From assembly GCA_036252695.1 (NCBI GenBank), contig GCA_036252695.1_4122.1: a stretch of DNA of 64,000 bases. One strand, given 5' to 3'. Origin of the DNA: a phage. The position numbers and the translations under genes were made by a program. Positions 16,790-21,455 of this stretch are shown one piece after another. The number at the start of each line of letters is the position of its first letter. The first letter of the stretch is position 1. The notes under the pieces are model-generated. The model did not search any database, was not told the origin of the DNA, and saw nothing but the letters and a program-made list of their open reading frames with translations.

Positions 16790-17164
16790 ATGAGTATGTT
16801 AGAAATAATTGTTTCAAAAATTCTTATTCCATTTTGGAAACCAATTTCTTTTGTATTATTAATTGGCGGTTCAGCTTATGCTGGTTGGGAAGCTAATACT
16901 TATTACAGTGGATATCAACAAAGCATAGAGCAACAAATAGCTAAAAAAGTTGATACCGCCTTGGATAAAATGCAACAAGAAAATGCAAAAAATTACCTTG
17001 AAACTAAAAAAATCATGGAAGATAATGCTAAAGTTATTGAAACAAAGGTTCCTTTTATTGTAGAACGTGAAGTTTATAAGAATGTATGTTTAGATGAAGA
17101 TGGTGTAAAAGTACTAAATGAACTAAAACAAAATTCTCAAGCAGCGAGGAATAAATTCAAATGA
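16790..17164 (+). CDS. i-spanin (Rz-like inner-membrane spanin component)
   Basis: N-terminal TM helix followed by charged coiled-coil-like periplasmic region; overlaps the lipoprotein gene by ATGA. Confidence 0.5.
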   Translation: MSMLEIIVSKILIPFWKPISFVLLIGGSAYAGWEANTYYSGYQQSIEQQIAKKVDTALDKMQQENAKNYLETKKIMEDNAKVIETKVPFIVEREVYKNVCLDEDGVKVLNELKQNSQAARNKFK

Positions 17165-17469
17165 AAAAATTATTAGTTCCAATGATTTCTTTTTTAATTA
17201 TAAGTGGGTGTGCCGAGCAAGTAAAACTACAATCCCCCGCACCAATTAAACAAGAAATTCTGTTAGAAAGATGTGATGATGATACACCTCTACCACAAAA
17301 AATTATGATTGACAAAAATGGTTTTAAAGGTTATGATGGTGCAGAAATTCTTAAAGTACTTACTCGTTGGGATGCAGTATACAATGAATGTGCTTTAAAA
17401 CATGACGCATTGATTAAAACTATTCGTGATTTACAAGGTAAAGATATTAAAATCAATATCAAGGAATAA
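17161..17469 (+). CDS. o-spanin (Rz1-like outer-membrane lipoprotein)
   Basis: Signal peptide with lipobox (LIISGC); small periplasmic protein directly after the i-spanin. Confidence 0.55.
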   Translation: MKKLLVPMISFLIISGCAEQVKLQSPAPIKQEILLERCDDDTPLPQKIMIDKNGFKGYDGAEILKVLTRWDAVYNECALKHDALIKTIRDLQGKDIKINIKE

Positions 17470-17470
17470 A

Positions 17471-18082
17471 ATGAACAAATATCATGTTTACTATACGACT
17501 AAATTATCACTTCTTGAAGAATTAAATCAACGAAGTACTAAGATGAAACGCTACACTTTAAATGGAATTACTTTTAGGTATTTCCCACAAAAAGTTCTTA
17601 CATTTATTAAGAATCCAAAATGCGTGGCATGTGGGATTGAAGCCACTGAAGTACGCATTGAACGTTCATTTTGTTCTGATCCAGTATATGGTAAACCACA
17701 TTTAAATATATATGCTGTATGTGGTCTTTATGAAGTGTTGATGACAGTTGATCATAATCATCTGGCATCTAAGGGTGGACCTGATTTAGAGTCAAACTTT
17801 AATACTATGTGCTCCAGATGTAATCAACTACGTTCGAATAAAACTGAAACAGTTGATGAGTTTCTTGAGAAAGTTAAAGGTCGTAATCTTCTCCAAGAAC
17901 ATATGAATAATTTCTTTAATGTACAAAAAAAGAAAAATAACATTGACAAGTCGAAACTACTAGAAGAACGTAGGTTACGTCAAGAATTATGGGAAACTGA
18001 TCATCTATGGCATGTTCGAGAGTTTGGTCGTCATATGAAAGCTTTGAAAAAAGAACAAAAGAAATTGAATAAACATGATTGA
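17471..18082 (+). CDS. free-standing HNH endonuclease
   Basis: Cys pairs plus DHNHLASKGGPD...NFNTMCSRCN (HNH motif); ORF track 17426..18082 but ATG at 17471 follows AAGGAA RBS. Confidence 0.6.
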   Translation: MNKYHVYYTTKLSLLEELNQRSTKMKRYTLNGITFRYFPQKVLTFIKNPKCVACGIEATEVRIERSFCSDPVYGKPHLNIYAVCGLYEVLMTVDHNHLASKGGPDLESNFNTMCSRCNQLRSNKTETVDEFLEKVKGRNLLQEHMNNFFNVQKKKNNIDKSKLLEERRLRQELWETDHLWHVREFGRHMKALKKEQKKLNKHD

Positions 18083-18095
18083 TATGATATTATAG

Positions 18096-18123
18096 GGACT
18101 TGAGTATTCAAGTCCTTTTTTTT
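18096..18123 (+). terminator. rho-independent terminator
   Basis: GGACTTGA / TCAAGTCC hairpin plus T8. Confidence 0.5.
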
Positions 18124-18134
18124 GGAGAAAATAT

Positions 18135-18407
18135 ATGAAAACTAAATTATTTCCACAACAAATAATGATTGAACTGTGCGAACATCAGTCTGGTGAAGTT
18201 GTTACAATCAGTGGTGATACGTATTCCATCATTTTAAATGAACAACAATTTGATCATACAAATCATACGAATGAACTGTATAATCTTATGTTTATGGACG
18301 ATAAGAGTGAAAAATACTATCATTGTACATATGAACGATGTATAGATACAACACCATTTTGTAATGAAATGGTTGGTGTTAAATGTTATGAATGTGAAGT
18401 GTTATGA
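18135..18407 (+). CDS. hypothetical Cys-rich protein, paralogue pair member 1
   Basis: Shares MKTK.F.PQ..M.ELCEH..G.VVTISG ... KYYHCTYER ... GVKCYE with 18428..18784. Confidence 0.5.
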   Translation: MKTKLFPQQIMIELCEHQSGEVVTISGDTYSIILNEQQFDHTNHTNELYNLMFMDDKSEKYYHCTYERCIDTTPFCNEMVGVKCYECEVL

Positions 18408-18427
18408 AGTTTTTTAGGTAAAAATAT

Positions 18428-18784
18428 ATGAAAACAAAAATCTTTCTACCACAAACCATGATGGAACTGTGTGAACATGATGCAGGAGATGTTGTCACTA
18501 TTAGTGGTTCCTGGAATGAGAGTACTGAAGACTTTATGCCAGATGAGGTATATTCTGTTGTTTTAAATGAACAGTACAATACAAGCCGTTGGAATGAACA
18601 GTACAATCTAGTTTTTCTTGACAATAACAATGAAAAGTACTATCATTGTACGTATGAACGAGGTCTGACAGAACGTAACTACACAACTCCTTTCTGTGAT
18701 GAAATGGATGGTGTAAAGTGCTATGAAGTTTCTGTTCGTCAGGTTCCAGTTGTTACTTACAAAACCGAGTGGGATTATCTGTAA
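18428..18784 (+). CDS. hypothetical Cys-rich protein, paralogue pair member 2
   Basis: Tandem paralogue of 18135..18407. Confidence 0.5.
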   Translation: MKTKIFLPQTMMELCEHDAGDVVTISGSWNESTEDFMPDEVYSVVLNEQYNTSRWNEQYNLVFLDNNNEKYYHCTYERGLTERNYTTPFCDEMDGVKCYEVSVRQVPVVTYKTEWDYL

Positions 18785-19182
18785 TGCTTAAAGATTTAGA
18801 TTTTTCAAATTTAGAGATCATCAGTGCAGTGAAGAATATTACTGATATGGATGATGAAAAAGGTGTAATGGTAACTATCACTTTCGTAAAGGAAGAGGAT
18901 AGCTATAAGCATCTTACTGGAATTGAAGAACTAATTCATAAAACCAATCTTGAGAATGATGGTAAACTCATCAAGCTTCAGGCTTCATATACGCAAAAAA
19001 CGTCAAATTTTATAGACCTAAATAATGTAGTCAAGGTGGTATACAATCATCCTGATCACACATATAGGAACACGACAAGAAATGAAAATGTTGCTAACGA
19101 TTCGAATATTATCGAAGATGTTGAATTCATAAACACAATTTTTGATCGTTGTTCTAAGGATTTAAAAAAAGTATACATGTAA
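18784..19182 (+). CDS. hypothetical protein
   Basis: ORF track 18769 (GTG); ATG at 18784 overlaps upstream stop (TAATG). Confidence 0.45.
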   Translation: MLKDLDFSNLEIISAVKNITDMDDEKGVMVTITFVKEEDSYKHLTGIEELIHKTNLENDGKLIKLQASYTQKTSNFIDLNNVVKVVYNHPDHTYRNTTRNENVANDSNIIEDVEFINTIFDRCSKDLKKVYM

Positions 19183-19183
19183 T

Positions 19184-19211
19184 GGGACATTATATGTTCC
19201 AATGATATAAT
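19184..19211 (+). promoter_or_regulatory. sigma70-like promoter (GGGACA-N16-TATAAT with TG extension)
   Basis: -35-like GGGACA at 19184-19189, 16-nt spacer, TGATATAAT at 19203-19211; same architecture recurs at 29933 and 48945. Confidence 0.4.
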
Positions 19212-19214
19212 GTA

Positions 19215-19735
19215 TATAGAAAATGACAACGGACATTGAAAAATGGACACTGAGAACCTACTTCTCTTGAAAATGTAAAGGATAGATGAGCTTTACCGTT
19301 GTAGCGAACAGCAGAAGAAACCTGTTAGAGTACTGGCATTTAAACAAACACGATGTAAGACCACGAATCACGGCGACACGGCTGTATAAAGAACTCCGAT
19401 AAGCATACAGAGAGTTCCTAGATAGATGTATAAGGTTCGCACCTTACCAGATTTGCTAAGGGAGTTTAAGAATAGCGGACGCAATTTTACAAGAAAGTTG
19501 CGTCCAAAATTTGAGAACAGGTACTTACTTTGATCGAATAGAGTTAGTACTGAGTGCTGTTGATGAAAAGACCAGCGACCGTTGCATATGACTGCGATAG
19601 AGAGAAACCGAGCAACCCGCTTTCGCTCTCTAAATTTTGGTACAAGAAAGATCCGTCCAAAATTTGAGAAATTCGCAATTCGATAATATCCGATGCCATC
19701 ATCGTCAAGAGAGACTTAATTGTCTCTTTTTTATT
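19215..19735 (+). ncRNA. candidate structured non-coding RNA (function unknown)
   Basis: About 0.5 kb between promoter and terminator with no ORF of 60 aa or more, higher G+C than neighbours, two near-identical 29-nt direct repeats (19488-19516 and 19641-19669) each forming a hairpin. Confidence 0.3.
19709..19733 (+). terminator. rho-independent terminator
   Basis: GAGAGAC / GTCTCT hairpin (loop TTAATT) plus T6. Confidence 0.5.
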
Positions 19736-19872
19736 ACCTTCATTCCCCTGCGGGGGGATGTAATAGTCCTCAACAAATCCCGTCAAGTTTTTAAAGTACA
19801 TTATCATTTTCAGAAGGAACTAGTTTACGAAGTAAACGCAGTGACTTCTTGAGTTACGAGAGAACGAAGTGA

Positions 19873-20301
19873 ATGAGTAACACAACGAAAATATCCGATA
19901 AATCTGAATTAACACAAATGTTATTCAAAGAATATTTTGAGTTCCAGATAAAAGACGAACATCAATTACCACAGCAATATTTGAAAAGAATTAAAGATCC
20001 GTCAGTAATTACTAAAGAAACTAATTTTTATAATAGTATTTTAGATTTCGTTAAATCAGTTCATACAACAAGACCTATTGTAGTTTTGTTTTTTGATAAA
20101 TCTATTCCTTTAGTAGTTCCTGAAAATGTATTTTTTATCTCAGAAACTGATTTAAATAATCAAAGTACTGTAAGTAGATTAAGAAATTGCTTACTTGTAG
20201 TATGTGATTCTTCTTTGTATAATAATAGAATACTATGGGATAGAAGTAAACGCAATGCAGTTTCGGAAATGAATCCTGAAATTACCTTTATTATTAACTA
20301 A
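19873..20301 (+). CDS. hypothetical protein
   Basis: 142-aa ORF; weak RBS. Confidence 0.45.
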   Translation: MSNTTKISDKSELTQMLFKEYFEFQIKDEHQLPQQYLKRIKDPSVITKETNFYNSILDFVKSVHTTRPIVVLFFDKSIPLVVPENVFFISETDLNNQSTVSRLRNCLLVVCDSSLYNNRILWDRSKRNAVSEMNPEITFIIN

Positions 20302-20333
20302 ATAATAATAGAATAACTCTAAGGAGAGATATT

Positions 20334-20774
20334 ATGGAAGATATTAATGATTTACGACACGTAATGGACTTTATCGGAAGTACTGAAGAAGATAATTCAT
20401 ATGATGAAGTACTATTAACTTTTATTGAAAATAGTTTGTTTTTAAGTTCTGCTGCACATAACTGGCACTTACAATGTCATTTTTATACAAAGCATTTACA
20501 ATTAGATGAACTATATAAAGAATTACCAGAATATGTAGACGCATTTGTTGAAGGTATCATGAATAATCGTGGTGCTTTGCAAGTTGGGACTGGTAATAGT
20601 TATCGTTTTACACCAATTGAAGATTGTGTACCAATTCTTGAAGAATATGTTGAGCAATGCAGAGCAATTCATGATATGCTTGAAGAATCGGGTGATTACG
20701 GCAGTGTAAACACATTAGAAGATATTATGAGTTTTGTTGAAGGAACACTTTACAAACTTAAAGTTTTACAATAA
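20334..20774 (+). CDS. hypothetical protein
   Basis: GGAGAG RBS; acidic 146-aa product. Confidence 0.5.
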   Translation: MEDINDLRHVMDFIGSTEEDNSYDEVLLTFIENSLFLSSAAHNWHLQCHFYTKHLQLDELYKELPEYVDAFVEGIMNNRGALQVGTGNSYRFTPIEDCVPILEEYVEQCRAIHDMLEESGDYGSVNTLEDIMSFVEGTLYKLKVLQ

Positions 20775-20781
20775 ACTATAT

Positions 20782-20810
20782 GGAGAGTCGCTATGACTCT
20801 CCTTTTATTT
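20782..20810 (+). terminator. rho-independent terminator
   Basis: GGAGAGTC / GACTCTCC hairpin followed by TTTTATTTT. Confidence 0.45.
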
Positions 20811-20822
20811 TGGAGAAATAAT

Positions 20823-21455
20823 ATGAAATCGCATGAATTAGCAAAATTACTACTGTCTCAACCGAATCTAGACATTTATCATTATGATGCAGAGAGTGAC
20901 TTGCATTATCAGAATTTTGATAATAGATTAATGGTTACACCATCTGGTATTTTCACCACAGTAAAAACCACATTAGATTATGAAAATGTACTTACTCCAT
21001 ACCATACACCACTCTTGGGTCACGTCCAAATTTTCTTTAAGGATGGTACTATTACTCCAAAATTGGAGGGTTCACATATCCAAACTGTTCTTAACTTAGA
21101 ATATGGGTTGGTATTTAACATTCCTTATGAAAAGCCAATTATTTTATTAGGTAAAAATCAATCAACACAATTCACTAATCAACATGCTGTTTGTTATACA
21201 TCCGATGATATTGATTTCATTTCAGTACTGACAGAATATGATCCTAATACTTGGCACGAAACATGGGAAACTATGTCATATGATGAAGCAATTGAATGTG
21301 GTAAAAATTTAGCCAAAATGTTATTTCCACCGAAAAAAGAACTTTCACAAGAACAAAATGAATCATTTTCTAAAGATTTTCCTGATTCTGAATTCAATGT
21401 TAAAGTATCAACTACCAAAATTGGTGAATTTCTAAATGAAAATCAAAAAGATTAA
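20823..21455 (+). CDS. hypothetical protein, paralogue of 21825..22409
   Basis: ORF track 20793; ATG at 20823 with GGAGAA RBS lies after the terminator; N-terminus paralogous to 21825..22409. Confidence 0.5.
   Translation: MKSHELAKLLLSQPNLDIYHYDAESDLHYQNFDNRLMVTPSGIFTTVKTTLDYENVLTPYHTPLLGHVQIFFKDGTITPKLEGSHIQTVLNLEYGLVFNIPYEKPIILLGKNQSTQFTNQHAVCYTSDDIDFISVLTEYDPNTWHETWETMSYDEAIECGKNLAKMLFPPKKELSQEQNESFSKDFPDSEFNVKVSTTKIGEFLNENQKD

Follow-up and report, generated by a model that had tools for sequence, protein, structure and literature searches.

Small acidic phage proteins such as Ocr, Arn, Tad1/Tad2 and Acb2 serve as counter-defence inhibitors or second-messenger sponges. The present analysis concerns a tandem pair of small genes at positions 18135-18784 of a phage DNA of 64,000 nucleotides (nt) (GenBank assembly GCA_036252695.1, contig GCA_036252695.1_4122.1; this whole stretch is termed the window), which is part of the genome of an Asteriusvirus, a 121Q/PBECO4-like jumbo coliphage. 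Like the inhibitors named above, the products of the pair are small and strongly negative, their genes have an apparently early, accessory location, and in some phages a gene of the same family sits beside a proven anti-defence gene. Unlike them, the pair displays no detected similarity in sequence or fold to any solved structure and its family has core residues that are more conserved than usual; membership is not claimed. The closest described relatives form PHROG 6343, which includes phi3T_129 of phage phi3T. The pair shares the size class and acidity of this family, and its longer protein shares most of the RW / Y / G-TE / PF residues. Differences comprise an insertion of ~12 residues in Asteriusvirus members (residues 28-39), divergence of the Q-D-E triplet in the same members (N-Y-T here), their coupling to a DUF7325 gene instead of the position beside Gad1 held by phi3T_129, and absence of the signature and C-terminal segment from the shorter protein. 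On balance, and with modest confidence, the locus as a whole is interpreted as a tandem pair of PHROG 6343 genes, one of them truncated, that would encode an early accessory host-interaction or counter-defence factor binding a conserved partner.

The pair and its downstream neighbour are arranged as follows (residue numbering refers throughout to the 118-residue copy).
18135-18407, + strand: copy 1, 90 residues, starting at ATG, with GGAG 8 nt upstream.
18428-18784, + strand: copy 2, 118 residues, starting at ATG; PHROG 6343, syntenic with 121Q gp514 and phAPEC6 gp309c.
18784-19182, + strand: DUF7325 gene, 132 residues from the ATG at 18784 (PF24011, E=2.2e-55).

An earlier note on this DNA had described two adjacent genes, of 90 and 118 residues, as tandem paralogues with a common N-terminus and common motifs, and this description holds. 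Both open reading frames (ORFs) lie where it placed them, BLASTP of one copy against the other returned 57 identities over 105 positions (54%, E=2e-36), far above chance, and ELCEH, KYYHCTYER and GVKCYE are present in both. Relative to copy 2, copy 1 carries deletions of 12 and 4 residues and an insertion of 2, and has lost the final ~15 residues. A search of the window revealed no additional family copies. The PHROG 6343 profile matched copy 2 with E=2.3e-23 (residues 1-116 on profile positions 1-108 of 109) and copy 1 with E=2.1e-5 (residues 6-89 on positions 3-95 of 109), and a hidden Markov model from 136 relatives gave E-values of 9e-32 and 2e-18, respectively. A profile search of 1.84 billion representative proteins produced 154 matches at E<=1e-3, mostly of 90-105 residues; all 136 aligned relatives, on which the conservation statistics are based, match PHROG 6343, a family catalogued without function. 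Eight residues are present in at least 90% of these sequences (R54-W55, Y76, G79, T81-E82, Q84 and P88), and the signature continues with a near-invariant F89, an acidic PFEYE-like stretch and then ...ECxEV. Copy 2 retains seven of the eight (R54, W55, Y76, G79, T81, E82 and P88), with Asn at position 84, while copy 1 retains two (Y76 and P88), its other positions being changed (R54 to H, W55 to T, G79 to C, T81 to D) or deleted (E82, Q84). The family is strongly acidic, with a median isoelectric point (pI) of 4.54, a median net charge of -10 and a pI below 5 in 123 of the 136 members; the corresponding values are 4.35 and -12 for copy 2 and 4.62 and -9 for copy 1. At the level of sequence, the pair is shown to consist of tandem members of a widespread family of small acidic phage proteins defined by RW/Y/G-TE-Q/PF and not by Cys and His residues. 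The record of Escherichia phage vB_EcoM_CRJP21 (CRJP21) contains this pair too, with both products labelled as hypothetical proteins; since the pair is already in GenBank under such names and the family is already a PHROG, the pair constitutes a new member of a catalogued, functionally blank family.

Scans of both ORFs and of family members against Pfam, NCBIfam and PADLOC gave no match, and a profile search of the PDB by sequence identified no relative, the hit to OXA-82 (E=0.97) being a chance match. Similarity to named anti-defence families was found neither in Pfam nor, by sequence or fold, in the PDB, and literature searches for phi3T_129 and phrog_6343 returned nothing. Family members of 150-250 residues contain no recognisable extra domain; two longer profile matches considered as fusions, P0020 (SRCR/Ig repeats) and P0143 (HNH_repeat), appear to be spurious and caused by repeats. 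Structure prediction, which the earlier note had proposed as a check on its metal-binding claim, yielded a confident AlphaFold2 (AF2) model of copy 2 with no fold relative in the PDB. The model, computed from a deep alignment (mean predicted local confidence, pLDDT, 93.3; predicted template-modelling score, pTM, 0.80), comprises a strand at residues 3-6, a helix at 8-15, a strand at 22-25 and long strands at 40-52, 56-65 and 70-79, followed by the conserved loop 80-95, a strand at 96-101 and a C-terminal segment without assigned secondary structure; this segment (102-118) is predicted with good confidence and has no pairing partner within the monomer. Foldseek of this model against the PDB retrieved nothing at E<=0.001 (best E=0.31, template-modelling score (TM) 0.30); the N-terminus of NUDT5 (E=0.3, TM 0.30) overlaps over a short hairpin and is uninformative. 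Against BFVD, only uncharacterised phage proteins were retrieved, among them Munch-like, Syleon, AS-szw and Cosmo proteins (E=3e-10 to 4e-4), from phages that infect Salmonella, Gordonia, Aeromonas, Mycobacterium, Bacillus, Lactobacillus, Streptomyces and Vibrio.

The earlier note had further suggested that the pair are small metal-binding proteins. Six Cys/His positions are common to both copies (C15, H17, H73, C74, C90 and C98) and, like the small Cys-rich zinc-binding phage proteins (zinc ribbons, treble clefs), the pair presents four to six Cys and two His within 90-118 residues. In contrast with those proteins, the pair has no paired knuckles of the CxxC, CxxH or HxxxH kind (CxxC and CxxH are absent, the sequence displaying instead a C-x-H in ELCEH, an adjacent H-C and isolated Cys), no zinc-finger Pfam match was obtained even at E<=1, and the candidate ligand positions vary among homologues. 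In the 121Q/PBECO4-type orthologue C15 is replaced by Ala, H17 by Leu and C90 by Arg, Glu or Gln; Hallingskeid, EJP2 and Munch carry Val or Thr at C74; almost none of the six is present in Gordonia phage Syleon or Aeromonas phage AS-zj. Cys or His makes up 33% and 36% of non-gap residues at positions 15 and 17, where 11-12 sequences are aligned, and 9%, 5% and 4% at positions 73, 74 and 90. The sole common Cys is C98, present in 79% of the alignment, and its column otherwise holds Phe, Val or Leu, which fits a buried core position. There are no Cys or a single Cys in 74 of the 136 family members, and the full set of six occurs in the two window copies only. Non-conservation in related phages, which the earlier note had itself set against its proposal, is what these comparisons reveal; because the positions vary across homologues, metal binding as a family-wide property is rejected as far as sequence can decide, and the Cys/His set would be a feature of this allele type and not the basis of family function.

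A narrower proposal is that the CRJP21-type alleles recently acquired a zinc site of their own, made of the four Cys (C15, C74, C90 and C98) with H17 and H73, in which the metal would stabilise the fold, especially in the trimmed 90-residue copy. It would account for the retention of all six positions in both paralogues despite synonymous saturation (synonymous divergence, dS, ~0.96), for the co-occurrence of C15 and C90 in this allele type only among the 136 sequences, and for the two further Cys of copy 1. However, the blocks in which the six residues occur (ELCEH, KYYHCTYER, TTPFC and GVKCYE) are in any case shared by the two copies, the family columns of C98 and C74 contain mostly hydrophobic or small residues, and H73 and C74 are adjacent in a predicted strand, so that they should face opposite sides of the sheet. 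The nearest orthologues, of 121Q type, manage without C15 and C90, one of the extra Cys of copy 1 is a product of a frame-shifted junction and not an evolved ligand, and the missing knuckles and zinc-finger profile match count in the same direction. Such a lineage-specific site is regarded as unlikely.

The relationship between the two copies can be read from the sequence that separates them.
18381-18419, + strand: duplication junction, deduced from the sequence itself and from its alignment with Turkey5, 121Q, a metagenome relative (L011) and CRJP21.

Here a 12-nt near-repeat, AAATGTTATGAA and AAGTGTTATGAA, offset by 16 nt, shifts the frame so that copy 1 ends in ...YECEVL-stop, and this shift is the source of the 'extra' Cys discounted above. 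After this, ...GAAGTTT runs straight into the T-run and the ribosome-binding site (AGGT) that belong to copy 2. In L011, TTTTATAGGTAAAATATATG, which precedes copy 1, recurs after ...AAGTGTTATGAAGTTT (...GAAGTTT) ahead of copy 2; the duplicated unit therefore extends from the T-run and ribosome-binding site to about codon 103 and is joined at a TTT microhomology. The junction shows copy 1 to be a 3'-truncated duplicate, born of illegitimate recombination. It is rare: besides CRJP21 and the window it is found in one 90% cluster (P0007) from five ENA metagenome contigs, a second homologue search with the 90-residue copy returned just this known cluster, and the close relatives Turkey5 and JNE01 have the 118-residue allele and no copy 1. 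The copies are old relative to the phages that carry them, because dS between copies is ~0.96 versus a proportion of synonymous differences (pS) of 0.03-0.10 between lineages. Another record, MH494197.1 (Escherichia phage CMSTMSU, a circular 'UNVERIFIED_ORG' entry of 386 kb), gave tblastn matches to the family protein at two sites; the inspected site (L010) holds a single copy, and the other could reflect either duplication during assembly or a genuine additional gene.

Copy 1 might be no more than a remnant of unequal recombination, non-functional and not yet purged, in which case the 118-residue gene would be the only biologically relevant one. This is possible, although rather unlikely. Its loss of 5-6 of the eight near-invariant family residues and of the C-terminal segment would agree with decay, as would the presence of H at R54 and of C at G79, each unique among the 136 sequences, the frame-shifted origin of its C-terminus, its rarity and its absence from Turkey5 and JNE01. 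Against decay, the ORF is intact in both known lineages (CRJP21/window and the five metagenome contigs), which differ at 10 sites by 5 synonymous and 5 non-synonymous changes, corresponding to a ratio of non-synonymous to synonymous differences (pN/pS) of 0.22 (binomial P=0.02 against neutrality). Every indel preserves the reading frame, and what is lost is peripheral in the AF2 model, so that the predicted helix and core strands of the family fold should be spared; a dS of ~1 from copy 2 indicates long persistence; and copy 1 comes first behind the predicted promoter, with a Shine-Dalgarno sequence (GGAG) better than any other in the unit. Although the numbers are small, retention of copy 1 with an altered function is judged likelier than survival as a dead remnant.

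Two regulatory elements were identified immediately upstream of copy 1.
18065-18093, + strand: predicted sigma70-type promoter (TTGAAT, 17-nt spacer, TG-n-TATTAT; match at 9 of 12 positions, with extended -10 TG).
18094-18117, T-run to 18123, + strand: GC-rich hairpin and T-run resembling an intrinsic terminator (stem of 10 pairs, loop of 4).

The predicted promoter overlaps the 3' end of the upstream HNH endonuclease gene. At the same site, -35 and -10 hexamers separated by a spacer of exactly 17 nt are present in Turkey5/JNE01 (TTTACT..TATAAT), EJP2 (TTGAAG..TATACT), Munch (TTGACA..TATTAT) and Hallingskeid (TTGACA..CATAAT). The hairpin is kept in 121Q, Turkey5, EJP2, Munch and Hallingskeid, and is annotated as a terminator in Munch. 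The whole arrangement of promoter, hairpin, T-run and ribosome-binding site is maintained in Turkey5/JNE01, EJP2, Munch and Hallingskeid, while the spacer and hairpin sequences differ. This compact overlap of promoter, terminator-like hairpin and ribosome-binding site (18065-18127) is conserved in five divergent Rak2-like phages. The hairpin would terminate the upstream unit of spanin and HNH genes; as it starts right after the -10 hexamer, transcripts from the promoter should begin inside its 5' arm and so escape termination. Downstream, the start of the DUF7325 gene overlaps the stop of copy 2 (TAATG). The order of a copy 2-type gene and DUF7325, with its start/stop overlap, also occurs in CRJP21, 121Q, Hallingskeid, EJP2, Munch, Turkey5 and JNE01; DUF7325 is a constant downstream partner in Rak2-like phages, and a search for it beside family members outside this group found none. 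Copy 1, copy 2 and DUF7325 probably form one transcription unit, dependent on host RNA polymerase and expressed early. In the virion proteome table of phAPEC6, the family gene product gp309c and the DUF7325 protein gp308c are absent and the neighbours gp306c and gp314c are listed. Within copy 2, positions 18618-18646 match the sigma70 consensus at 11 of 12 positions (TTGACA, 17-nt spacer, TATCAT), inside the most conserved coding block (FLDNNNEKYYH); the copy 1 equivalent (18295-18323) matches at 9 of 12. This match may represent a promoter within copy 2 that serves DUF7325, or it may simply follow from the coding sequence.

Comparison with related genomes reveals how the genes behind this promoter have changed. 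The nearest relative of positions 17000-20000 is CRJP21 (98.8% DNA identity); 121Q, PBECO4, phAPEC6 and others are ~95% identical to the segment, yet cover just 85% of it. Gene by gene, nucleotide identity to 121Q and the ratio of non-synonymous to synonymous divergence (dN/dS) are as follows.
16790-17164: i-spanin, Rz-like (phrog_1152); 99.7% identity, dN/dS ~0.
17161-17469, overlapping the i-spanin gene: o-spanin-like lipoprotein (phrog_2425; weak LysC/Rz1-like Pfam match); 99.4% identity, dN/dS ~0.
17471-18082 (ORF listed from GTG at 17426): HNH endonuclease (PF01844; phrog_23285, E=6e-130); 97.9% identity, dN/dS 0.07.
18428-18784: family gene (copy 2); 64.1% identity, dS ~1, dN/dS 0.42.
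18784-19182: DUF7325 gene; 83.5% identity, dN/dS 0.11.

From these alignments, the pattern in the slot is that of replacement by an old divergent allele, and not of in situ hypermutation. The left flank of the window is 121Q-like, while the ribosome-binding site and allele of copy 2 are Turkey5-like. The orthologues in 121Q (gp514), PBECO4 and phAPEC6 (gp309c) resemble copy 2 in length (118 residues) and in position, after the spanin and HNH genes and before DUF7325, and they lie behind the same arrangement of promoter, hairpin and ribosome-binding site. They differ from it in being only 53-56% identical at the amino-acid level and in lacking C15, H17 and C90, and, unlike the window, their genomes have a single copy, as do most Asteriusvirus genomes. 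In the Erwinia phage Hallingskeid (1947-2505 of locus L003), two small ORFs of 101 and 79 residues stand directly behind the conserved promoter, where the window has the 90-residue copy. These ORFs were compared with the family as possible paralogues and are unrelated to it; the slot appears to accept different accessory genes. The HNH gene sits between the spanin genes and the pair; it is missing from this site in EJP2, which suggests a mobile homing-endonuclease insertion. In CRJP21 it is labelled 'starvation-inducible DNA-binding protein', apparently an annotation slip.

Neighbourhoods of the family were collected from 80 IMG/VR loci, based on an alignment of a 23-sequence subset; 62 loci were scored for the immediate upstream neighbour, and, of the flanking genes, eight cluster representatives were scanned with Pfam. 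Neighbours across the 80 loci include a T7-like DNA polymerase and a primase-helicase (both recognised by sequence inspection), a 5'-3' exonuclease, ribonucleotide reductase (RNR), ThyX and HNH proteins, and in T4-like Aeromonas phages the family gene occurs in the tk-regB and nrdA.1-rnlA regions. Such company raises an explanation unrelated to defence, in which the family would assist phage DNA replication or nucleotide metabolism in an accessory role, for instance by regulating RNR or the replisome or by serving either as an adaptor. Two structural neighbours in BFVD named 'nucleotide reductase subunit C' would agree with it, and residues that are near-invariant in phages of unrelated hosts fit a conserved partner internal to the phage. 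However, none of these neighbours keeps a fixed place beside the family gene (they lie from -9 to +9 genes away), the Asteriusvirus gene lies between lysis genes and DUF7325, no redox CxxC motif is present, and allele swapping together with presence/absence variation is typical of dispensable accessory genes. A replication or nucleotide role is accordingly considered improbable.

Directly upstream of the family gene, the neighbour found most often is a homologue of Gad1 (PF25705, E=7.5e-122), in 9 of the 62 scored loci. In those nine the stop and start codons abut or overlap, and the other flanking genes differ. Seen from the opposite side, 41 of 80 Gad1 loci from IMG/VR (L100-L179) have a same-strand family gene whose start lies at -31 to +13 nt relative to where the Gad1 match ends, with Gad1 identities from 100% down to 34% and phi3T-like Gad1 included; most of the remaining 39, which lack a family gene, are ~30-37% identical to phi3T Gad1. 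A gene of phi3T_129 type lies directly downstream of gad1 in phi3T and in SPbetaL1, SPbetaL3 and SPbetaL4, and in SPbetaL1 a 90-residue family gene overlaps the annotated end of Gad1; phi3T_129 itself, of 90 residues, is a family member (hhalign probability 99.6%, E=6e-25). Yirmiya et al. reported exactly two genes, gad1 (phi3T_128) and phi3T_129, that every SPbeta-group phage able to overcome Gabija has and the sensitive phages lack (bioRxiv 10.1101/2023.05.01.538930). The family member is therefore genetically tied to an anti-defence gene and is not itself an anti-Gabija factor. In the window, tblastn with three Gad1 proteins gave nothing better than E=0.24, and the upstream gene is the HNH endonuclease.

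It could be argued that the family is a dedicated partner of Gad1 within anti-Gabija counter-defence, as cofactor, chaperone or neutraliser of Gad1 toxicity. The abutting or overlapping gene pairs, the joint presence or absence of both genes in SPbeta-group phages, and the observation that phi3T Gad1, from the partner-bearing clade, could not be cloned and is presumably toxic, while four homologues were not toxic, would all agree with such a role. Yet gad1 alone with its native promoter is enough for Gabija resistance of SPbeta, phi3T_129 alone had no anti-Gabija effect, and each gene is often found without the other, Gad1 being absent from 53 of the 62 scored family loci and from the window, and the family gene from 39 of the 80 Gad1 loci. 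A role confined to Gad1 is thus very improbable.

The favoured interpretation remains that of an early accessory factor acting on the host or its defences. Both genes and the translationally coupled DUF7325 gene would be transcribed, probably early, from a host-type, sigma70-like promoter, and their products would be non-virion cytoplasmic proteins. The full-length protein would bind a conserved partner stoichiometrically through the invariant RW / Y / G-TE-Q / PF surface, the candidates being a host protein, a defence protein or a small ligand, and not Gabija on its own; it would thereby serve the phage as an accessory factor in host interaction or counter-defence. In the truncated copy this surface is lost, so that the copy would be sub- or neo-functionalised, or heading to decay. 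A host-takeover role, already raised in the earlier note, is plausible for the pair on indirect grounds, in view of the conserved sigma70-type promoter, the absence from the phAPEC6 virion proteome, the swapped slot, the acidity of the proteins and the cassette linkage of homologues with gad1.

Several observations weigh against this interpretation. Promoter matches in this AT-rich region are near chance overall (27 found versus 23.4 expected), and for the predicted promoter at 18065-18093 it is only the conserved position that speaks in favour. The sole experimental datum on any family member is negative, as co-expressed phi3T_129 failed to inhibit Gabija (main text and Suppl. Table 7; bioRxiv 10.1101/2023.05.01.538930); in the literature searched, no family member is reported to have been tested against other defence systems. 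At 90% identity the Gad1-adjacent partners fall into 15 clusters, at 70% into 4 and at 50% into only 2, so that much of the linkage may come from a single cassette passed on vertically; and since the window lacks Gad1, the cassette argument reaches its phage only through homology. Finally, near-invariant residues across very different hosts are unusual for an arms-race inhibitor; a housekeeping function, as in nucleotide metabolism, could be the reason for them instead.

Around the transcription unit, scans of 17000-21000 and 17900-20000 found neither transfer RNA genes nor Rfam families. The ~690 bp that separate the DUF7325 gene from the following gene on the + strand (19183-19872) contain no convincing ORF; 121Q has an annotated minus-strand ORF of 51 residues in this interval, and the window a minus-strand ORF of 87 residues at 19544-19807. 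Two genes downstream, 20334-20774 encodes a ferritin/Dps-like protein (DUF5856, E=2e-28; phrog_858, 'starvation-inducible transcriptional regulator').

These results delimit a large uncharacterised phage family and its real signature residues, a family with no Pfam entry and no structural relative, and identify one of its members as a constant companion just downstream of gad1 in roughly half the Gad1 loci sampled, including those of the phages in which Gad1 was discovered. The locus is also a clean example of an accessory slot behind a conserved early-type promoter that was remodelled in jumbo phages by allele replacement and illegitimate duplication. A bolder proposal, which is tentative and at present doubtful, is that PHROG 6343 represents a new and widely distributed family of counter-defence or host-takeover proteins, with a fold unseen in the PDB, that acts through RW / Y / G-TE-QDE-PF on a broadly conserved target or signalling ligand. 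It would explain why the gene travels with gad1 as a translationally coupled cassette in Firmicutes phages, and under it the allele swapping and the trimmed extra copy would represent arms-race diversification of that function. If the family does act in counter-defence, it would be a widespread and easily tested factor, and the Gad1 cassette link together with the absence of structural relatives makes it a reasonable, cheap target for counter-defence screens.

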